A stretch of 64,000 bases of DNA from a virus: positions 61,828 through 125,827 of IMG/VR virus record IMGVR_UViG_3300032770_000007; one strand, 5' to 3'. Shown one piece after another: positions 25,844 through 62,558 of this stretch. The translations under genes and the position numbers were made by a program. The number at the start of each line of letters is the position of its first letter. Positions within the stretch are counted from its first letter, which is position 1. The notes beneath the pieces were generated by a model, which was given only the letters and a program-made list of their open reading frames with translations, did no database searches and was not told the DNA's origin.

Positions 25844-26408
25844 TATTTTTCCTCATCATATCTAGATATACATCATGCTGATACCAAATCCCAGTCTTTG
25901 GATCAGGTACAAATCCCCAATCCATGTTGTGGGTTTTTCCTCTGGTAAAGAGAGTCCAGGTCTCTCCAGGATTTGGAACTTCTACCCAATGGAGATCCTG
26001 TGGCACAGTAATCTTATCAGGCATGCCATTAAGATAAGAGACCCATTTACCACCTCTAACAAATCTTGAATGCCCAGGACCACGCCAATGAGTACCCCAG
26101 GGAGTATGCTCCCAGTAACCACCTTTCAAAATGATGGAGTGATACCAAAACCATGGATGATTATGAAAGACTGGATCATCAGAACGCAAAAACCTATGCA
26201 AAAAGGTATTGAATGGAATATCTTTGCGTTCACGCTTGACACTATCGGGCCAAACTAGATAATATCTTTCTAAGTATTCTTCTACATCATCTCGATCTTT
26301 GATGATGAGTTTTCTACCTTTCTTATCTAGTTGATTTAGAGCATATTTTACAAGAGATTTCATCATACCATTATATAAAGAATATCTGTAAGAGTCAATG
26401 AATTCCAA
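25830..26408 (-). CDS. cupin-fold conserved phage protein
   Basis: YLERYY, LHRFLRSD, HNHPW, GGYWEH, HWVE, WTLF, WGF metal-binding cupin pattern. Confidence 0.7.
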   Translation of the reverse strand: MEFIDSYRYSLYNGMMKSLVKYALNQLDKKGRKLIIKDRDDVEEYLERYYLVWPDSVKRERKDIPFNTFLHRFLRSDDPVFHNHPWFWYHSIILKGGYWEHTPWGTHWRGPGHSRFVRGGKWVSYLNGMPDKITVPQDLHWVEVPNPGETWTLFTRGKTHNMDWGFVPDPKTGIWYQHDVYLDMMRKNNELG

Positions 26409-26515: not shown

Positions 26516-26914
26516 TTAATTTTTGTTATTTCCGATAGAATATTTAGCCACTAGTGTCCAGTTACCCTTGTCTTTGAAAGGGATTATTTTAATCTGAGAC
26601 ATATTAATCTGTTCTTTGATGCTTTCTGGATTGACCACAGTTATCAAACCCCACTGCTGCAATAGATCACAAATCTTGTTTCTGCGAGCAATGTCATTAT
26701 CATCCAAAGAACTAGGTTTGCCATCAAGCAAAAACATTTCTTTGAAATGTACGAGATAGTAATTGCCTCTTTTATGGAGTATATGACAAGATTGATATAG
26801 AGTATTGGCTTGTTTATTTGCCACACCTATTCTTGTCAATGTTTCTCGAACTTTGAGGAAGTCATCATCATTAGCCAACTTTATTTCTACACCCACATCC
26901 ATGACAGTCTCCAA
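26516..26914 (-). CDS. regA: translational repressor RegA
   Basis: DDFLKVRETLTRIG, LYQSCHILHKRG.YY.VHFKE. Confidence 0.97.
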   Translation of the reverse strand: METVMDVGVEIKLANDDDFLKVRETLTRIGVANKQANTLYQSCHILHKRGNYYLVHFKEMFLLDGKPSSLDDNDIARRNKICDLLQQWGLITVVNPESIKEQINMSQIKIIPFKDKGNWTLVAKYSIGNNKN

Positions 26915-32939: not shown

Positions 32940-34042
32940 TCAAACACCAATTCATTCACATTATGATAATACTTACTATTGAAACTATTTTCAAATACTG
33001 GAAAATCCTGATCCATCATTATCACTTCACCAGTCAATCTAAAATGATTTTGTTTCTCTTTTGATAGACCTGTTTGTTTGTGAGTAGGATCAGATGGATT
33101 ATCTTCTACTCGTAAGTATATAGGCAGAGTATCTTTACGTAGTTCGCGTTGATTATCAAATCTAAATCCCCAACGTTCTTCTGCCTTTTGGATCCTCTTA
33201 TAATGCATATCCAAATATACACCAGGATATCGGCGATCCTTTCTAAACCAGGATTTGTAACAACACATTGTACTTTCTAGTGTAAAGTAGGAATTATCTG
33301 GATGTGGATATTGTTCTGAACATTCTTTCAGAAGTCGTTCTCCTTCTTGTTCTAGCCAAGGAAGAACTTTGCTATAATCTCCATTGAAACCTGGATTCAA
33401 TGTTTCATGCCAATCCAAATCATCCCTGCCCAATATTTTACACAATCCATTTCTATGTGATTTGCTGCCATTTATATCATCCAAAAATAGACTATCACAA
33501 TCAATAGGCAGACCAGCAATCCTTAAATATTCCAAATAAGAAAAGGTGGATAATCTACCAAATAGAAAAAACTTTTCCATCACGTAGTTCCATAATCTAC
33601 GGAACCGGATATAGTTATCTCCATCAGTACCACAAACAGATTCAAAAAACTTGGATTGTGTCTGGCCATCAAGATTTGTAAGATATGATAAAACAATATC
33701 ACCAATCTTTGATTTGGTATATTTCCTATCCATGTCCCATTCTAGTTTGTGCCAATGTCTCATTACAAAACTATGAAGTTGATCTGCCTCATTCTTGGTA
33801 GGCAAATCTGGAAAATACCTAAGCAAAGTTTCTGTAGTTACTATGTTTTGACAAACCCCATTTAGAAAACAGGCCCAGAGTAATCGTTCTTTAGACCAAG
33901 CAAATCTATTAGCCAAATAAGGAAAAGCAGCATAAACAAAGCCTGGATGTGCTTTGTGCTTATTATGAAAATAGTAGAATCGTTTAAAGACTTCTCGACG
34001 ATTGATGGGTAAACGATAATCTTGATTAGCTAATAAAATCAT
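32936..34042 (-). CDS. amino acid:DNA transferase (aGPT-Pplase2-like, HhH glycosylase fold)
   Basis: HPGFVY, DMDRKY, FGRLSTFSYLEYL, GSKSHRNGL, TLESTMCCYK, RRYPGVYLD. Confidence 0.8.
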   Translation of the reverse strand: MILLANQDYRLPINRREVFKRFYYFHNKHKAHPGFVYAAFPYLANRFAWSKERLLWACFLNGVCQNIVTTETLLRYFPDLPTKNEADQLHSFVMRHWHKLEWDMDRKYTKSKIGDIVLSYLTNLDGQTQSKFFESVCGTDGDNYIRFRRLWNYVMEKFFLFGRLSTFSYLEYLRIAGLPIDCDSLFLDDINGSKSHRNGLCKILGRDDLDWHETLNPGFNGDYSKVLPWLEQEGERLLKECSEQYPHPDNSYFTLESTMCCYKSWFRKDRRYPGVYLDMHYKRIQKAEERWGFRFDNQRELRKDTLPIYLRVEDNPSDPTHKQTGLSKEKQNHFRLTGEVIMMDQDFPVFENSFNSKYYHNVNELVFE

Positions 34043-35031
34043 CCAACCTTGCCTCCTATAATCCAAAACATAGATTTACTCTTGTTTATATGAGCAAATA
34101 AATGAGAATGATCTAGCATAAAGTTCCATGCCTTGGACTCATAACGAGGATGAAAATCTATATTTTCATATTGTGCTTCTACTAGTTCATTATAAGTGCT
34201 ATAGCCATCTTTACAATATGAACAACTCTTTTCACCACAACCATTTTGAGCATCAAAGTGTTCTATTTGAATATCTTTTTTATACAAACTATTGATGAAA
34301 CTAAAATCAAAGATAAAGTCTGGATCATAACTATGCACTTTACCAATAGTGACTAATCTATCTCTAACATAAATTGGATTATTAGAACCAAGATTACCTA
34401 CACCAATCATTACAACTCTTTTTATATTTCTTGGATTGAGTGCCAGGCCATGAAGAACACTTACAATGCTGTTACAAGAACCAGCGGAGATAATCAATGT
34501 ATCAACTTCATCAGGTATGTTTGATACCTGAAAGGCACTCACACTATGAAACTTGGCTATGTACTCTGCTTCACCTGTTACTGTAATATTTGTTTCTAAA
34601 TGAAAGAGTTCTGGTGTTACGAGACCTTCAGCCTTGGCTTCTAATGTTTTGGCATAACCCACATTAGACACAACGAACTCAGCACCAAACTTTTGAGCCA
34701 TTTCAAGCATGGGATAGTTTATAATAGTTTGAGTTCCTGTTACATCAATATCTTTGAGACCATAATGATTACAAATAGCAGCAACCATTGGGTGTTGAGG
34801 AGAACCAGAAACAGCTCCATGAACAACTCCTGTCTTACCTTCTTTCACAGCCTTTTCATGGATTAGCCAAATACATTGTCGGCATTTGGTGCCATTGATG
34901 GAATTTGGACCAAGAGGAGCAAAGAAATCTTCCCTCTTGAACCACATATGACCAACTTTTTCTACTGGAGTTAGATCATACAAATGCTGATGCCAAGCAT
35001 CAGTCCATGGGGTCAATACAGATCGTGTCAC
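34039..35031 (-). CDS. fold-type II PLP-dependent enzyme
   Basis: LTPVE..WFKRED..NGTKCRQ (PLP Lys), SPQ, AGSCNS, HPRYESK, FWIIG. Confidence 0.85.
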   Translation of the reverse strand: MTRSVLTPWTDAWHQHLYDLTPVEKVGHMWFKREDFFAPLGPNSINGTKCRQCIWLIHEKAVKEGKTGVVHGAVSGSPQHPMVAAICNHYGLKDIDVTGTQTIINYPMLEMAQKFGAEFVVSNVGYAKTLEAKAEGLVTPELFHLETNITVTGEAEYIAKFHSVSAFQVSNIPDEVDTLIISAGSCNSIVSVLHGLALNPRNIKRVVMIGVGNLGSNNPIYVRDRLVTIGKVHSYDPDFIFDFSFINSLYKKDIQIEHFDAQNGCGEKSCSYCKDGYSTYNELVEAQYENIDFHPRYESKAWNFMLDHSHLFAHINKSKSMFWIIGGKVG

Positions 35032-35051
35032 AGAGCAGCTCTCCTTCCCTT

Positions 35052-35228
35052 CTATACCAAGTCAAATGGATATAGGTGGTCTCGTCGAAAGATTCTATCT
35101 AATATTCTTTGTGAGTAAACTCTTTCACAAAATGGGCATTTCCATTCCATGGTTTCAGGAAATTGTAAGAGTAAATAGGGAGGAGGGGATTGATAAGAGC
35201 AAGGAGCTTCAATACAGGTATATCTCAT
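35052..35228 (-). CDS. 58-aa putative Zn-ribbon protein (not in ORF track)
   Basis: MRYTCIEAPC...WKCPFCERVY; ATGA overlap with the dioxygenase stop. Confidence 0.55.
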   Translation of the reverse strand: MRYTCIEAPCSYQSPPPYLLLQFPETMEWKCPFCERVYSQRILDRIFRRDHLYPFDLV

Positions 35229-36496
35229 TCAAAAAGTTCCTCTAAGGTTGTGTAAGATTTAGTTTTTGTAATCAAATGTTCTTGATGTCTAGATCTTAAG
35301 AAGTCATACCATTCTTTAGTCTCAAACATAGACTGACTAACACCATTCCAACCATCTCTAGCCAGTACATGATTTGGATCTTTGCGTCTGTGTTCTACGA
35401 AATCATATCTGGCATCTTCGTATTCTTTTGTGCCCAATTCTAGCATATCCTCACGAAAGTAACACACAAGACTTATTCTCTCATGATCATCACCAGTTAT
35501 AGGAGTATTACCATGGATATACTCATGATTGTTGACCAGGAGCAGATCACCTGGTCTCAAATTCACAGCAGCTCTGATTTCTGGAAGTATTAGATATCCT
35601 CCCTGATAGTTTTTGTTCTTAGCCACAACAGAAAGATTACTAAATCCAGAGTTCAAATCTCCAGCATCTCTGTGAGCAGCTGTTCTGAAGTTTTTATTAA
35701 CAGTTATTGTAGTGAACACAGTACCTGGAATAACAAACTCTGGATCTAGTTTTTTAGCACACTCTAGTTGATTGGCAAATCTATTAGGTAACATTTCATA
35801 GAAACTTAGACTTAGTTTTTGTAAGAATGGAAAAGACAATTGGAACTTATCATAGTTGTGAGCAGTGTAACTAGTTGCTCTACCATAAGGAATACGAGGA
35901 TAGCGTCCAAAGTATCCAGCCACCCCACTTTCTACTGGATTGGCATAAGAGGTATCACTTATGAAAGTGTCTAATACCCATTTGGCTGCTTTTCTAATAT
36001 CTTCTGGTTCTGTGAAAGTAACTACTGCTCGTAGCCATCTGTTCCAATCAAAGTCATGCTTCTTGGTTTCAGAAGTCAACCAAACTTCTCCACGACATTC
36101 TGGATCCTTCTTTGCTCTGGCTCGTAAAGTTTCAATATCCTGTGGAATAGGTAATGTTTCAACTTTGCTTAAGAATTTGAGAATTTCTCTTTGTTCTGGA
36201 GTAAGCCATTCCCTCCCTTGAAGTTTCTTTCCCTTCGGACCAGCAGCCACTCCTCTATTTTGAGATTGTTTGGCTGCTTCTTTCAAACCATCATAGGCTC
36301 CAATCTGGTCTGCATCACTGAACCAATTCTTACGGAACTTCAGAATAATATTCTCTTCATCAGCTCTTTTATTATCAAATGGATCTTTGCGGTAAACATC
36401 ACAATCTTCTTCTAATAAAACATCGTAATGTTTTTCATCTAGGAATGTTTGAAGGAGATGCTCGCAATCAATCTTAGACAAGAATAGTGTTTTCAT
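35225..36496 (-). CDS. TET/JBP-family 2OG-Fe(II) dioxygenase
   Basis: FTTITVNKNFRTAAHRDAGD (HxD), HGNT, RISLVCYFRE; C-terminal LEELF clamp-binding-like peptide. Confidence 0.85.
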   Translation of the reverse strand: MKTLFLSKIDCEHLLQTFLDEKHYDVLLEEDCDVYRKDPFDNKRADEENIILKFRKNWFSDADQIGAYDGLKEAAKQSQNRGVAAGPKGKKLQGREWLTPEQREILKFLSKVETLPIPQDIETLRARAKKDPECRGEVWLTSETKKHDFDWNRWLRAVVTFTEPEDIRKAAKWVLDTFISDTSYANPVESGVAGYFGRYPRIPYGRATSYTAHNYDKFQLSFPFLQKLSLSFYEMLPNRFANQLECAKKLDPEFVIPGTVFTTITVNKNFRTAAHRDAGDLNSGFSNLSVVAKNKNYQGGYLILPEIRAAVNLRPGDLLLVNNHEYIHGNTPITGDDHERISLVCYFREDMLELGTKEYEDARYDFVEHRRKDPNHVLARDGWNGVSQSMFETKEWYDFLRSRHQEHLITKTKSYTTLEELFE

Positions 36497-36534
36497 ATTT
36501 TCTCTTAGATAACCCACCCACACTATATAGACAA

Positions 36535-36563
36535 AATAAAAATGGGGTCACAAAAGTGACCCC
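36535..36563 (-). terminator. Rho-independent terminator
   Basis: GGGGTCAC-TTTT-GTGACCCC followed by ATTTTTATTTT on the minus strand. Confidence 0.85.
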
Positions 36564-36647
36564 GAAGTGAGGCTTGCGCCTCTTGCGCGTCCAGGAGACG
36601 TTTGGACTGCGCTTATCCGTTGCGACTGCTACGGGTTCCTTGATGTT
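36535..36647 (-). ncRNA. candidate structured small RNA of about 110 nt
   Basis: GC-rich with three hairpins (one with a GCAA tetraloop), own promoter and terminator, no credible ORF on this strand. Confidence 0.65.
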
Positions 36648-36653
36648 AGATAT

Positions 36654-36682
36654 ATTCTACCTTCAATATCCGTAAGAGTCAA
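36654..36682 (-). promoter_or_regulatory. sigma70-type promoter TTGACT-N17-TAGAAT
   Basis: Near-consensus with a 17-bp spacer, directly upstream of the hairpin cluster. Confidence 0.8.
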
Positions 36683-36691
36683 ATGTCAGCA

Positions 36692-36829
36692 TCATTTCTT
36701 CTCATCCCAGGACTTACAAGCTAAGACAAGCATGAGGAAACTAACTCCAAATCCTAACAAGGATAGTCTAGTTTCAACATGGCTTGTTATGAACAATGAG
36801 CCCAAGCACCACAGTACATTTTTGTTCAT
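36692..36829 (-). CDS. 45-aa membrane peptide (not in ORF track)
   Basis: MNKNVLWCLGSLFITS...LLGFGVSFLMLVLAC; TAATG overlap with the CobS-like stop. Confidence 0.45.
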   Translation of the reverse strand: MNKNVLWCLGSLFITSHVETRLSLLGFGVSFLMLVLACKSWDEKK

Positions 36830-38229
36830 TAGATTGTCGTCCCACCAACCATGTTGTTTTCCACCAGCCGACGCACCATGTCCTCAAACTGATTTACCTG
36901 CGTTGGACTGGGCATTTGGGTCAAAGGCCTAAATGACTTGTTGCCATGTGAGTAGACTGAGAGGTGTTCTGTGCCATTGATGAGTTCATTCTTGATAATG
37001 ACTGCCTTCTTGTAGGCATGGGTCAATTTACCACTCAGAGGTACATACTCAATGTCTGTGGTGGCAGCCGTCTGCTGAACAGTTTCTGGCTTTGCTTCTT
37101 GTGGGCTAGGATCCACATCCAGCTTATCATACAGGTCCAGAAAACCCTTAGCAACCTCTGCATCAAATCGATTCAGGCACAGCTTGATGGCCTTCTTCTT
37201 GTTCTTGAAGATGGCATATGCCTTGGCAATGTGAACCAGGCGGCGAGTACTGATGACTTCATCAACAGCATCATCCTGATAAGAACGGCGGATCTGGTCA
37301 GCCCACTCCACCAGAACTTTGATGAACCGGTCAATACCTTCCTCACCATCCAAACCAAGCTGCTTGAAGTTCTTTTGAAGAATCTTGGTCTCTGTGTCAG
37401 CGTTAGGATATTCCTGTTCTACCGTGATGGCAAATCGCTCCAGGAATGCCTCATTCAGAACATTGGCACCGATGAACCGACCATCACTTGAACCCTTACC
37501 CTTGGTGTTGGCTGTGGCAATGACCTGGAAGCCTGGTTGTGGATAGACAACCGTGTTAGTCTTCTTATCCAGGAATGGCTTGCCCTCCAGCACTGGCTGG
37601 AGGCACAGGAGATGCTCTGAACCATAGTCCGTCTCATCCAGAAGGAGGATGGCGCCACGACGCATGGCAGTCAGCACCGGACCTTCGCGGCGAACAGTAT
37701 TACCATTCACGAGCTCATAGGCACCGAAGAGATCAAGCTCATCAGTATTCTTGGTAATGTTCACGCGCACCACTTCACGACCCAGGCAAGCAGCCACCTG
37801 AAGTGCCATGAGTGTTTTTCCATTACCACTCAGGCCTGTGATGTAGATGGGATAGAAAATCTTGGAGTTGATGATATTCTTCAGATCAGTGTAGAAACCG
37901 AAGGGCACATAAGTGGGATCCTTCGGTGGCACAAAAGAATCAGAAATGATCATTTCTGTCTCTGGTGTTACAGCCAAATGAACTGCTGCTGGCACAGGGA
38001 CGGATACTGATGCTGGAGTAATGACTGGATTGGTTCCCTTGCAGCGATACTTGCCCCAGCCTGCGCTCCTTGACTTGTTGTAGGTCAGGAAGTAGGGATA
38101 GGGTAGACCATTGGCCTTGCAGAATTCATTGATCTGCTTGTTGGTGACCACATCAGTCTTGAAGTGTTCTGAAATCCGATTACAGAACTCTTCCTGGCTG
38201 GCGCTATCAGGATAGTTAGGCTTTCGCAT
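36829..38229 (-). CDS. cobS: CobS-like MoxR-type AAA+ ATPase
   Basis: GLSGNGKT, LLLDETD, TANTKGKGSSDGRF, LNEAFLERF, ISTRRLVHI. Confidence 0.9.
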   Translation of the reverse strand: MRKPNYPDSASQEEFCNRISEHFKTDVVTNKQINEFCKANGLPYPYFLTYNKSRSAGWGKYRCKGTNPVITPASVSVPVPAAVHLAVTPETEMIISDSFVPPKDPTYVPFGFYTDLKNIINSKIFYPIYITGLSGNGKTLMALQVAACLGREVVRVNITKNTDELDLFGAYELVNGNTVRREGPVLTAMRRGAILLLDETDYGSEHLLCLQPVLEGKPFLDKKTNTVVYPQPGFQVIATANTKGKGSSDGRFIGANVLNEAFLERFAITVEQEYPNADTETKILQKNFKQLGLDGEEGIDRFIKVLVEWADQIRRSYQDDAVDEVISTRRLVHIAKAYAIFKNKKKAIKLCLNRFDAEVAKGFLDLYDKLDVDPSPQEAKPETVQQTAATTDIEYVPLSGKLTHAYKKAVIIKNELINGTEHLSVYSHGNKSFRPLTQMPSPTQVNQFEDMVRRLVENNMVGGTTI

Positions 38230-38270
38230 CGATTTGTCTCCGACTCACAAAATGTTATTCAACAGAGGGT

Positions 38271-38330
38271 ATTTTACCACAAGTCAACCACAAAGTAAAG
38301 CACTATAATTTATCAGTTATCAATCACTTA
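38271..38330 (-). promoter_or_regulatory. early promoter TTATAGTGC-TTTACT-N17-TAAAAT with upstream IHF-consensus box
   Basis: One of three copies with identical spacing; TATCAATCACTTA at 38318-38330. Confidence 0.8.
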
Positions 38331-40605
38331 GACGGTCCTCAAGACCATCAATAGTGGATATATCCTGGGCAAACTGGCTCAGGATGATCCTGGATGCCTT
38401 CTTCATCTGTTGATGATTTGTGAATGCCTTTTGAAGGACATCCTGACCCTTTTTGGTCTGTGTGTTCTCAAACTTACGAGAAGTGAAGTCATCCTCATAA
38501 CCCATGAACTTGGTGCTCACGTAATAATAGTTATCAAACCCAAGAACAGGCATGGCTACAAAACCATATTCCTTCAGATTCTTCATTTTCTCTCTATTGC
38601 TCTGCTCATCCTTAGTAGAAGTTCGATTGCGGATCTGAGCCTCAATCTCATTGGAACTGCAAATGTAGTATCCAATATGACGACACCCAGTGATCTGCTT
38701 GACCAACTCAGTCAAAGAAGCTTGAAGTGTCACGTAGTCATAAGCATCTGACGATACAAACTGGCCAGTGATAGGATCAGTGATGATTACTTTCGTCAGA
38801 TTCTTTTGACAAGTTTCTGACCTTACTGCTGAAGGCAGGTTAATGCCATTACCAGCACCATCAGTCAGGTAGATCACATTTACAATGTCTACCTTGGTAT
38901 TCATTTTGAACTCTTCAATCATCGTCCTTGATGTCATAACTGCCTCACTCAGAGGAGTGCCAGACATTGAAAGACCAGTCGTCGTTGAGTGACTGAATCC
39001 CTCCAATCCTTTTTGTACCACTTGATATTCTTCTGATTGGGGATCCATTCCAGCAGATAAAGAATGCACCGCCGCAAAGAAGGACAGCATTTTGTATGCT
39101 CGTCTTTGAAGACTGGCTGGAATGTTAGAAGACATCAGATGCCTCAAATGAAAGCCTGGACTATGAACAGGCAGATCACGCGGCATTGAGCTGAACTTGG
39201 CACCACCTTTGCGTGTAGGCATTGAACCATAGTCATTCCGGTCAGCAAAACCATAAACGTCGAAGGGGATTTTGACTTTCTGACAAAAAGCAGTCAGGAT
39301 GATGATCTGCTCTATTGAATGGAACATGTAGTCTCCATTCATTGAACCAGACATATCCAGAAACATAATCATGCCATGGCTTTTGCCCTTTGGCACTTCT
39401 GTGATGCGGCGGAACACATCAGACGTGAACTTGTACTGAGACAACCGGCGCATGTCCAGTTCACCAGAGCGATGAGTCTGTGCGCGGTAATATTGCCGCG
39501 CATCCTTCTTCATTTCAAACTCTTTGACCAACACGTTGATGTGATCTCTGTGCTTTTTCATGAAATAACTCAACAGCATTTCACTGCGATTGTGATATTC
39601 AGGCAACTTGCTTTGAATGGCTGCTTCAAAAAAACTCACAACATTATTGACATCATAGATCATTTTGTTGTGGTTGACACGAGGTAGAGTGACATTAGCA
39701 ACTGAGTGGCTGCTAGTGTCCATCAACTCTTTTTCCTTTTGACGGAAAATCTTGTCTGTAACAGCAGTTGGCTTAACTTTGGACTTGCCATGATCTGGAC
39801 TACCCTGTTCCGCATCAACTACATTTGATGACTTTTGGTCTTCTCCATCATTCTGTTCATTAGGATCCTGGCCTTCAGCATCAGAGCTTTGGCCATCTTG
39901 AGCCTCGCCTTCTTCACCATCCTGGCCATCACCACGCTCACGCTTGCCCTTTTTGGTGCCATCCTTAGCAGCAGCCAGGTCATCAAGATTCTGAATGGCT
40001 CCCCTTTCCTGCTGGCAGGCCACATAGATTTCACGAGCCAGTTTGAGCACTTGCTCAAATGTGTCTGCCTCATCCAACCGACGAACGAAATCTTTTTCCT
40101 TCTTATTGAACTGAACACCAACCAGTGCACCAATCTTGAAATAGAGATTGATGCGGTCAATCAGATTAAGTTCATTCAGGTCAATGTCCTTGACACCAAA
40201 AAAATCACGATCAAAAAGTTCTTTGTAACCCTGTACAAAGGATTTACGAAGGCCAGGAAACTTATTCTTGATTTTCTTTTCAATCCTGGCATCCTCACAG
40301 ACGTTCAGGAAAAACTTGAAGTTTTCATCAAAGCATGAAGCATCATGCGCATGATTTTCTTTGCATTGCATTATTGCATCATGCCAACCTTCTGCTGGAG
40401 TGTTGAGAGCATGACCCACTTCATGACCCATGAGGAGATCATAAAGTTCGGGTGATGTGTCTTTCCAGTCAGGGACATGAAGGACGCGCTCTTTCATATC
40501 AAAGAATGCGGTCCTGATGCCTTCATGAAACACCTGGATATTCTCTGCGGCCATTAGCTTGGCAAGCAGAGATTTGGTGGTTACTAAACTGGTCTTTCTA
40601 GCCAA
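38320..40605 (-). CDS. CobT-like protein: HExxH metallopeptidase-like domain, acidic linker and vWA domain
   Basis: GHEVGHAL, NVCEDARIE, LDMSGSM, GTPL, LTDG; partner of the CobS-like ATPase; TTG start after AGGAG. Confidence 0.88.
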   Translation of the reverse strand: MARKTSLVTTKSLLAKLMAAENIQVFHEGIRTAFFDMKERVLHVPDWKDTSPELYDLLMGHEVGHALNTPAEGWHDAIMQCKENHAHDASCFDENFKFFLNVCEDARIEKKIKNKFPGLRKSFVQGYKELFDRDFFGVKDIDLNELNLIDRINLYFKIGALVGVQFNKKEKDFVRRLDEADTFEQVLKLAREIYVACQQERGAIQNLDDLAAAKDGTKKGKRERGDGQDGEEGEAQDGQSSDAEGQDPNEQNDGEDQKSSNVVDAEQGSPDHGKSKVKPTAVTDKIFRQKEKELMDTSSHSVANVTLPRVNHNKMIYDVNNVVSFFEAAIQSKLPEYHNRSEMLLSYFMKKHRDHINVLVKEFEMKKDARQYYRAQTHRSGELDMRRLSQYKFTSDVFRRITEVPKGKSHGMIMFLDMSGSMNGDYMFHSIEQIIILTAFCQKVKIPFDVYGFADRNDYGSMPTRKGGAKFSSMPRDLPVHSPGFHLRHLMSSNIPASLQRRAYKMLSFFAAVHSLSAGMDPQSEEYQVVQKGLEGFSHSTTTGLSMSGTPLSEAVMTSRTMIEEFKMNTKVDIVNVIYLTDGAGNGINLPSAVRSETCQKNLTKVIITDPITGQFVSSDAYDYVTLQASLTELVKQITGCRHIGYYICSSNEIEAQIRNRTSTKDEQSNREKMKNLKEYGFVAMPVLGFDNYYYVSTKFMGYEDDFTSRKFENTQTKKGQDVLQKAFTNHQQMKKASRIILSQFAQDISTIDGLEDRLSD

Positions 40606-40627
40606 GGCAGTCTCCTATTTACAGGCT

Positions 40628-40687
40628 ATCATACTCTCTATTAAGAAAGAAGTAAAGCACTATAAATGATTTAGAATCAACCATTTA
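40628..40687 (-). promoter_or_regulatory. early promoter TTTACT-N17-TATGAT with IHF-consensus box
   Basis: Second copy; AATCAACCATTTA at 40675-40687; overlapped by a 13-bp inverted repeat (40656-40694). Confidence 0.8.
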
Positions 40688-50993: not shown

Positions 50994-51022
50994 CGTTGTC
51001 TCCTGGACTCAAACAGATTGTG

Positions 51023-60567: not shown

Positions 60568-60611
60568 GCTAACTGTCTCCGGATATTATGTGTTTAGTTA
60601 TCAATCATGAT

Positions 60612-61598: not shown

Positions 61599-62558
61599 CT
61601 ATACTCTCCTCTTGTTCTTGCCCCAACGAGGCAAAAGATTTCTATTGATGAAAACTTTATATGGAGCAAAGTCAATCCTGATGTCCTGACAAAGTTTCTT
61701 AAATCCATCAATAGCCTGTTGTGGCCGAATCATTTGCAACTCATGATCTGTAATCAATGCTACATTAGTTACATCTCCACGATGCATTCTGTTTTTAACC
61801 CATTTCACATAGGCCATGAGAAACTGTATTTGTAGTTTTTGTTCTTCCCAGGTAGGAGTCATCTCAAAGAAACGAAATTCAAAAGTATTGAGATGAAAAC
61901 AAGACCTGAACATATAATCTTTAGACCAGTCCATGAGTCCAATTATATCACAAGTAGGTGATATCTTAACTTTGACTGGATCAGTATTATAAATCAGTGA
62001 TAGTAAAACTCGAAATAACCCAGGTGAATAGAAGACTACGTCTCTATCAAGATTATCCTCTTCCAATAAGAGGTCTCTCATATATGTTTTCTTATTGATC
62101 AAAACATTCATGGAGTCAACTTCATCCTTCTCACCAAATACCCAGGGCAAGAATGGACGCATTATCAAATCCTTGGCCAATGCTACCTTCAAATATTTGT
62201 CTTTGATCCCCAAGTGAATGTGTGCTCCACCATCCACAGTTTCTGGATGTTTGGGATAACAATCATAAAAATTAAAAATATCACGTACAGCAATACACCA
62301 AGATTCTGCTTCTTGCATTGTGTATAGTTTTGGTGATGATACTTCTATACAATGTACATCATGATGACACGTATAATATTTGATATTTTTATTCTTGAGT
62401 TCTGTTTCAATCAAATCTGTTTTCTCTAATAATAGTACATCCATTTCCTGAGAATGTTGTTCATATAATTCATTGTATGGAGAAGGATTGAAATATTTTT
62501 CCTTGAACTCTGCCGGGACTCCTGTCAACTCAATACCCATGGGATAAGGCAAACGCAT
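61599..62558 (-). CDS. putative amidoligase (COOH-NH2 ligase, Amidoligase_2-like)
   Basis: GIEL, IEVSSP, GGAHIH, TFEFRFF motifs of the GS/GCS-like fold. Confidence 0.7.
   Translation of the reverse strand: MRLPYPMGIELTGVPAEFKEKYFNPSPYNELYEQHSQEMDVLLLEKTDLIETELKNKNIKYYTCHHDVHCIEVSSPKLYTMQEAESWCIAVRDIFNFYDCYPKHPETVDGGAHIHLGIKDKYLKVALAKDLIMRPFLPWVFGEKDEVDSMNVLINKKTYMRDLLLEEDNLDRDVVFYSPGLFRVLLSLIYNTDPVKVKISPTCDIIGLMDWSKDYMFRSCFHLNTFEFRFFEMTPTWEEQKLQIQFLMAYVKWVKNRMHRGDVTNVALITDHELQMIRPQQAIDGFKKLCQDIRIDFAPYKVFINRNLLPRWGKNKRRV

Follow-up and report, generated by a model that had tools for sequence, protein, structure and literature searches.

In a stretch of 64,000 nucleotides (called the window in the following; positions 61,828 to 125,827 of the IMG/VR record IMGVR_UViG_3300032770_000007), the minus strand carries a short structured element between a cobS-like ATPase gene and a Tet/JBP dioxygenase gene, which raises the question of whether this element encodes a regulatory RNA and, if so, on what the RNA acts. 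The source record (G000) is that of a T4-like phage, comprises 125.8 kb and is estimated to be 69% complete. An earlier annotation made from the letters alone (the sequence-only reading) had described at this place a small RNA of about 110 nt with its own promoter and terminator, thought to act either in trans or as an attenuator of the DNA-modification operon behind it. Every part of that description was present on the minus strand where it had been placed. We predict an RNA of approximately 115 nt (36533-36647, minus strand), whose start would lie 7 nt past the -10 region and whose 3′-end falls within a U tract. By the comparative evidence given below, it is a real, conserved, non-coding structured phage RNA. 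Of the roles considered for it, that of a trans-acting regulatory RNA appears to be the best reading, since a conserved open loop with the core GUCUCC is the exact complement of GGAGAC, a hexamer serving as Shine-Dalgarno sequence of dispersed genes in the phages that possess the RNA.

Homologues of the RNA in related phages

Altogether, 161 loci containing relatives of the Tet gene were collected (from two collections, not de-duplicated). Only in L086, L087, L088 and L089 (the same as L090) is the cobS-like gene located directly upstream of Tet, as it is in the window. Homologues of the element, whose search the sequence-only reading had recommended, were found at the same place, between the cobS-like gene and the Tet operon, in L086 and L088. 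Run on 162 loci, nhmmer gave E-values of 0.0016 for L086 and 0.0064 for L088, and a covariance model with the window as its only sequence (R1) scored L088 with 46.7 bits (E 1.3e-10) and L086 with 19.5 bits (E 0.0087). A two-sequence model (R2) yielded 22.1 bits for L086 and 20.0 bits for L089, both at the syntenic spot. L089 harbors a divergent form, in which the flanks, hairpin 3 and the terminator are retained and two other hairpins replace hairpin 2. In L087, only a single hairpin and the TTGACTCTTAC promoter, the same as in the window, are left. The L086 locus belongs to a complete record of 176.9 kb (G001) and the L088 locus to a record of 17.5 kb (G002); one copy of the RNA was found per record. 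The RNA gene would have a length of about 90-135 nt; a small clade of uncultured T4-like phages has retained it directly behind the cobT-like and cobS-like genes.

By blastn, the region gave no match among 50,697 phage records, and nhmmer detected none in the first 80 loci. A degenerate (IUPAC) pattern comprising the loop and hairpin 3 matched, within IMG/VR, the records of L086 and L088 only; in bacterial genome contigs the same pattern hit 43 unrelated stretches, mostly from GC-rich bacteria, with no R2 homologue among them (best score 14.1 bits, E 0.44). Protein-guided scans led to one locus with the cobS-like protein and to two loci with its C-terminal extension, which added no member to the family. 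Upstream of Tet, no such RNA is present in the cultured relatives DLP_6 and C48C1. In phage C48C1 (L248, OQ984149.1, Kyanoviridae), a tRNA-Asn and a tRNA-Leu gene (2152-2316) lie directly upstream of the Tet/JBP homologue, at the place where other loci have the RNA or a winged-helix gene. A model search of G003 to G007 did not find the RNA, which is a weak negative since the genome-level model search also missed the known copy of G001. Scanning of G003, G004 and 60 kb of G006 (the record of L082, 36% complete) for the hairpin motif disclosed no comparable hairpin. A hairpin of L053 with the same loop (9.6 bits, E 5.8) was dropped, as it resides inside a coding region. The closer Tet relatives P0002-P0016 (59-65% identity) lie outside this census of the family, and the Tet alignment in IMG/VR comprised, among the matches listed, only the 51-57% group.

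In 135 of the 161 loci a winged-helix gene (PF14090) is situated between cobS and Tet; 19 loci were not judgeable. This small gene occupies the slot of the RNA in these loci (among L001-L162; L082:3740-4021). Where the RNA is present the gene is absent, and neither G000 nor the complete genome G001 contains it. As far as these comparisons go, either the RNA or the winged-helix protein gene fills the same slot, and the two are mutually exclusive at the locus. In L082 and L148, cobS was the nearest match, at a distance of 1-2 kb with other genes between; L148 does have the winged-helix gene. An extra gene of approximately 200 aa (L148:1410-2020) is inserted there between the winged-helix gene and Tet, and the Tet leader of this locus has GGAGAC.

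Secondary structure and covariation

The minimum free energy fold of the RNA (-47.1 kcal/mol, z = -5.4; none of 200 shuffled sequences folded as well) consists of exactly those four hairpins that the sequence-only reading had named. When the three clear members of the family were folded independently, the same architecture was obtained with z-values of -5.4, -5.2 and -6.2, the common plan being an optional hairpin 1, hairpin 2, hairpin 3 and the terminator. Hairpin 1 (CCGUAGC-AGUC-GCAACGG; 36617-36634, minus strand) exists in the window and L086 and is absent in L088. Two of its seven pairs are compensatory between window and L086 (scored by eye), and two are G-U pairs in L086. Hairpin 2 (36585-36612, minus strand) has a lower stem of 4 bp, set off by an invariant bulged A (36608) from an upper stem of 5 bp with a loop of 9 nt; across the members, the upper stem measures 5-6 bp and the loop 9-10 nt. 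Hairpin 3 (GAGGC-GCAA-GCCUC) extends over 36569-36582 on the minus strand.

Covariation in homologues, on which the sequence-only reading had been made to depend, was observed in both hairpins. In hairpin 2, both partners have changed in seven of the nine pairs, with no pair broken, in the window, L088 and L086, while three of the five pairs of hairpin 3 are compensatory, again with none broken, in these sequences and L089. Pairs were counted by a script using the fold coordinates of each sequence, a procedure that favours pairing; no alignment tool set L086 in structural register. RNAalifold, applied to a plain MAFFT alignment in which L086 stands one position out of register, revealed the same two hairpins with 15 pairs, four of them compensatory and five with a broken or gapped cell (four non-standard pairs in L086 and one gap column). 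The G-U pairs in L086, together with the U tract, identify the minus strand as the relevant one.

The invariant elements of hairpin 2 are the bulged A and, in the loop, the core GUCUCC (36594-36599, minus strand), the loops of the members reading AACGUCUCC, AUUGUCUCC and UAUUAGUCUC(C). The other loops of the window RNA are AGUC and GCAA; one hairpin alone carries GUCUCC. By prediction, the core is unpaired with a joint probability of 0.955 (window) and 0.959 (L088). The stem of L086 is closed by the last C, with UAGUCUC open.

No open reading frame (ORF) of at least 40 aa on the minus strand overlaps positions 36533-36650, and ARAGORN detected neither tRNA nor tmRNA genes in the window, both in line with what had been stated on the element. 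A plus-strand ORF of 121 aa (36567-36932) overlaps it and has no Pfam family. The suggested comparison with Rfam (version 15) gave no match in the window at the gathering score; at E-values of up to 10, the sole match was sroH, which reached 9.4 bits (E 6.2), the gathering score being 80. The GC-richness ascribed to the RNA was found for its core (0.53 versus 0.377 for the whole record), but the neighbouring cobS-like gene also reaches 0.45-0.57.

As a whole, the previous interpretation was supported in part: the conserved structured RNA unit, the terminator and a plausible own promoter stood, and three of the functions that it had considered did not. The first of them was a decoy for CsrA/RsmA. 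RNAs of the CsrB and RsmY/Z type possess several loop-exposed GGA motifs, which are conserved among homologues. Both ANGGA motifs named in the sequence-only reading are present, but L086 has not conserved the AAGGA located at the 5′-end, L088 lacks the corresponding part, and CUGGA is base-paired in hairpin 2. A type III antitoxin finds no support, given the lack of tandem repeats in 36000-37200, as ToxI-type antitoxin RNAs are made up of tandem direct repeats. The stems covary freely between the phages, with no single sequence kept, which argues against mimicry of a CRISPR repeat by an anti-CRISPR RNA.

GGAGAC at ribosome-binding sites

As tag sites we counted GGAGAC hexamers situated 3-12 nt before a start codon that opens at least 40 aa. 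By this definition, 13 of the 32 occurrences in G000, 19 of 56 in G001 and 3 of 7 in G002 are located at start sites. On the minus strand of the window, GGAGAC represents the Shine-Dalgarno sequence of a gp18-like tail sheath gene (60575-60580; gene start 60567), a gp23-like major capsid gene (50998-51003; start 50993), the cobT-like gene (40610-40615, directly behind an early-type promoter; start side of the gene 40605), the cobS-like gene (38236-38241) and a regA-like gene (26907-26912; start 26902). The names of the sheath and capsid genes are presumptive, that of the latter being accompanied by matches of 56-76% in relatives, and the regA-like gene is named after the T4 protein to which we assume it corresponds, rather than by a family search. 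All five genes are tagged in both G000 and G001; in G002, cobT, cobS and Tet are tagged.

Wherever one of these five genes was held by the RNA-bearing records G000, G001 and G002, it read GGAGAC (12/12). The same genes in the complete relatives G003 and G004, which have the winged-helix gene and lack the RNA, never did (0/10). At the gp23 site, four records without the RNA showed GGAGUA, GGAGAU, GAGGUA and GGAGAA. Among 15 ortholog pairs of G000 and G001 with GGAG in both partners, five have AC in both; of the other ten, two agree in the next two letters. Apart from the hexamer, there is little likeness between the leaders of G000 and those of G001. Thus, a conserved and, by prediction, accessible seed is complementary to conserved candidate target sites. 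The six-pair duplex GGAGAC:GUCUCC has an energy of -8.3 kcal/mol, compared to -6.4 kcal/mol with what we take to be the 16S tail motif.

The tag is also frequent behind a family of early-type promoters with very short leaders (CTTTACTT-N13/14-AGTATAAT; e.g., window 40620-40660), which was found upstream of five genes in G000 and eight genes in G001. GGAGAC is the Shine-Dalgarno sequence in three and five of these cases, respectively (8/13 in total); the script had given two and four, and one mis-called start per genome was corrected by eye. On the minus strand of the window, the hexamer was counted 15 times. Its single copy on the plus strand is the RNA loop, which is hence the sole GUCUCC on the transcribed strand of the 64 kb. 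The strand bias of 15:1 as such was the second strongest of 60 hexamers with the same composition and is not significant after that many comparisons. Avoidance of a restriction site was ruled out as well, since GTCTCC exists 32 times in G000 (hand estimate approximately 31) and 16 times in the window (17.7 in shuffles). A second seed in the conserved 5′-end of the RNA (AACAUCAA) had no shared start-site targets.

L089, whose RNA is devoid of the GUCUCC loop, has no GGAGAC at its own cobS, at Tet or at the 11 ORF starts in 10 kb of its relative L331. The divergent RNA of this locus (L089:2826-2940) has a hairpin with UUCUC in the loop, and GGAGAA was seen at Tet, at a downstream ORF and at two L331 genes. 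Loop and sites may represent a matched change of loop and tag, observed in a small part of this phage only.

Promoter-like site, terminator and the probable transcripts containing the RNA

The promoter-like site TTGACT-N17-TAGAAT, given by the sequence-only reading as promoter of the RNA, is present at 36654-36682 (minus strand) with 10 of 12 matches. It is the joint best of 19 promoter-like sites in the region 34000-40000, a number that as a class is not beyond chance (12.6 ± 4.1 in shuffles). The -35 region and the start of the spacer, TTGACTCTTACrGATATT, recur in L087 and at window positions 26381-26393 (minus strand), downstream of the regA-like gene; TCTTACRGATATT has two matches in the window, which were also reached by 5 of 100 shuffles. 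TTGACTCTTACrGATATT...TAnAAT forms a second promoter class, which occurs twice in L087 (L087:880-960). The conserved spacer of this class suggests a recognition beyond the sigma-70 contacts. L086, L088 and L089 have retained a GGTAGAAT / GGTATGAT block. A clear -35 region is missing in them, the relatives retaining just the -10 block, and for this reason a putative own promoter is firm for the window only, a point that weighs against an RNA made independently throughout the family.

The predicted terminator was identified as GGGGUCAC-UUUU-GUGACCCC at 36563-36544, followed by AUUUUUAUUUU. Including the U tract, this intrinsic terminator covers 36533-36563 (minus strand) and has an 8-bp stem with six G-C pairs. 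A Rho-independent terminator with U tract ends the RNA in all three clear members (window, L086 and L088). A minus-strand scan of 34000-40000 disclosed no other terminator-like site between the cobS stop (36829) and the terminator of the RNA, so that transcripts of the cobT-like and cobS-like genes would meet this terminator first. Probably, the RNA would arise in two ways, from its own promoter and, as no terminator stands between, at the 3′-end of cobTS messages.

The second way raises the question of whether the element is nothing but this 3′-end, with hairpins protecting the message from exonucleases and terminating it, no regulation, and a promoter-like site that arose by chance. Such a view agrees with the lack of a terminator behind cobS, with the three relatives having no clear -35 region and with promoter-like sites being no commoner than in shuffles. 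A stabiliser, however, needs no invariant 6-nt loop and no bulged A on a stem that is turning over. Moreover, the GGTAGAAT / GGTATGAT block was kept in four diverged sequences, and the window promoter belongs to the recurrent TTGACTCTTAC class. On balance, we regard this explanation as quite improbable.

We give similarly little credit to attenuation, the other alternative of the sequence-only reading. As a leader of the Tet/JBP operon, and perhaps even a riboswitch, the element would cause termination as long as no alternative fold is formed. The order of promoter, structured leader, terminator and operon fits, and in L087 the TTGACTCTTAC promoter drives Tet through one hairpin. Furthermore, when the 3′ arm of the terminator was removed, the 5′ segment paired with the terminator base over 4-5 bp (CCCG/CGGG in the window, CCGAA/UUCGG in L088, weaker in L086). 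Yet this helix takes only 2-3 nt of a terminator stem of 8-11 bp and uses mostly the invariant CCG/CGG, so that few stem pairs would be lost, and the GCCUC/GGGGU alternative of the window is absent in L088. All forms have a conserved -10-like block between terminator and Tet. In the window this GUCUAUAUAG block is located at 36513-36528 (minus strand) and reads CTATATAG; L088, L086 and L084 show CTATATAC, CTATATAA and CTAAATAG, respectively. It is probably the own -10 region of the Tet operon or a late-type promoter similar to that of T4 (TATAAATA type). In 135 of the 161 related loci Tet has a terminator and its own promoter upstream. There was no Rfam riboswitch match, and attenuation leaves the fixed loop and the tag unaccounted for.

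Proposed mechanism

Our preferred explanation, for which we see about an even chance, is that of an anti-Shine-Dalgarno RNA, made independently and/or as the 3′ untranslated region of cobTS, which pairs with the GGAGAC tag. Its working part would be hairpin 2, whose stem is free to vary as long as it is paired, the bulged A and GUCUCC being fixed. The open loop would pair with GGAGAC, that is, a GGAG Shine-Dalgarno sequence plus a private 'AC' tag. By this means it may cover the ribosome-binding site and set the translation of the whole tagged gene set, which includes the majority of the genes that follow early-type promoters and, in addition, cobT, cobS, regA, gp18 and gp23. The genes gp18 and gp23 are the two most abundant virion genes. 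Pairing would occur in trans; for cobT and cobS it could possibly occur in cis, because their message ends at the same terminator. Repression is most likely the direction of the effect, by analogy with icaR and the Cuckoo-type RNAs discussed below. The wider idea that a lytic T4-like phage possesses a private translation regulon run by an RNA, in which GGAGAC marks early genes, regA, capsid and sheath genes and a single fixed loop times or balances their translation, is put forward more tentatively, and we hold it to be somewhat less probable than the pairing itself.

Several observations, in addition to the missing -35 regions of the relatives, weigh against a tag-reading RNA. G006 has GGAGAC on cobT, on cobS and at 7 of its 83 GGAG sites, but the 60 kb scanned contain no hairpin of this type. 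The tag was also found on cobS (L077, L145) and Tet (L087, L147/L148) where no RNA was visible. The share of GGAGAC among the GGAG sites is raised only modestly, with 13/88, 16/145 and 3/8 (15%, 11% and 38%) in the RNA-bearing records versus 8/97 and 3/113 (8% and 3%) in others, and the start-site calls include false internal starts, e.g., at 101154 and 94601 in G000. The complementarity comprises only 6 nt and has no extension in G000. In G001 it reaches 8 nt (GGAGACUA) at four of the five conserved sites, but UA after the tag is common anyway in genomes that AT-rich. The tagged set is a mixture of early and late genes, for which a simple early shut-off does not account. Among the RNA-bearing loci, the Tet operon is tagged in L088 only (3 of 78 distinct Tet leaders are tagged), and the position of the RNA beside this operon is left unaccounted for. 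Finally, the three clear members of the family are related, so that counts of presence and absence are not independent events, and the contrast between 12/12 and 0/10 may go back to a single evolutionary event.

If the match to GGAGAC were incidental, hairpin 2 could be an operator that is bound by a phage or host protein, e.g., by a ribonuclease or by the cobS-like ATPase with its C-terminal extension. A bulged A and a fixed loop on a covarying stem are the usual look of an operator, and the winged-helix gene of 135 of the 161 loci is missing where the RNA is present. The extension itself has approximately 90 aa (DIEYVP...VYSH...PSPTQV; window 36832-37101, minus strand; L086:2501-2770; L088:2513-2782) and is 44-47% identical among the RNA-bearing phages. 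Out of 42 pattern stretches in IMG/VR it was confirmed in two, both from the other RNA-bearing records, and may be linked to the RNA. A weaker form exists in L087, which has the extension but no RNA body. Besides, no RNA-binding domain was identified in any neighbour, and an operator does not account for the 'AC' that is kept after GGAG at five orthologous genes only in RNA-bearing phages. We therefore consider an operator unlikely, though less so than attenuation or a mere 3′-end.

Comparison with known systems

What stands out in the predicted system is the pair GGAGAC/GUCUCC, the single-loop form with promoter-like site and terminator, and the tagging of gp18, gp23 and regA. The Cuckoo or CcsR small RNAs of Alphaproteobacteria consist of two to four hairpins standing side by side, with CCUCCUCCC in every loop (PMC4615179). 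They resemble the phage RNA in being short RNAs of adjacent hairpins, whose stems are variable and whose loop motif is fixed, pyrimidine-rich and anti-Shine-Dalgarno-like. In the phage RNA, however, the motif is present in one of three hairpins, reads GUCUCC and would address a private tag rather than the general Shine-Dalgarno sequence; the Cuckoo RNAs are bacterial, whereas the RNA studied here is encoded by a lytic phage. Membership in the Cuckoo/CcsR family was ruled out by the single loop with the motif and by the different motif.

Of the icaR mRNA of Staphylococcus aureus it is described that a C-rich motif of the 3′ untranslated region pairs with the Shine-Dalgarno sequence of its own message and blocks initiation (PMC3868564). 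Similarly, the phage element would be the 3′-end of the cobTS message, both genes of which carry the complementary site. The icaR case is a single-gene circuit with RNase III, while the phage tag is found on genes across the genome, and the phage element has a promoter-like site of its own in addition.

In T4, the proteins RegB and RegA shut off early messages post-transcriptionally, with GGAG Shine-Dalgarno sites in a set of genes as the target, and strong RegB sites read GGAGRAYARAA, as given in a review (PMC3014915). Both factors are proteins, and GGAGAC misfits this consensus at the sixth letter. A search for the RegB family gave no match here, but the control genomes were silent too. The same review states that no small regulatory RNA that acts in trans has been characterised functionally in T4 (PMC3014915). 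In the literature searched, we found no description of a phage RNA of such kind.

The c4 antisense RNA of phages P1 and P7 also pairs by its loops with the ribosome-binding region of a phage message. It has one downstream target in a temperate immunity circuit, in contrast to the six-letter tag on many genes of lytic T4-like phages described here.

Gene neighbourhood

On the minus strand of the window, the cobT-like gene (38320-40605) is followed by the cobS-like AAA_5 ATPase gene (36829-38229), an ORF of 45 aa (36692-36829) coupled by TAATG to the cobS-like stop, the RNA element and the Tet/JBP dioxygenase gene (35225-36496). Downstream of the latter, genes for a pyridoxal phosphate (PLP) enzyme, an amino-acid:DNA transferase, a kinase and a glycosyltransferase constitute the rest of the DNA-modification operon. 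The families of these neighbours bear out that the RNA is positioned, as had been proposed, directly upstream of an operon for DNA modification, which begins with Tet/JBP. Its tie to DNA modification is positional only, because the Tet operon is tagged only in L088. The 45-aa ORF is hydrophobic and may encode a small membrane protein or be spurious; neither PHROG nor Pfam gave a match for it, and L086 and L088 lack it.

Implications

The 'AC' kept after GGAG points to selection beyond what ribosome pairing alone accounts for. An RNA that works like the anti-Shine-Dalgarno RNAs, but has as its target a private tag of a lytic T4-like phage, is plausible and testable. If it is true, a six-letter tag and a mirror loop would provide a portable, orthogonal handle for translation control in engineered systems. 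For the phages themselves, tag and loop would represent a simple rule by which a large lytic phage co-ordinates the translation of a dispersed gene set.

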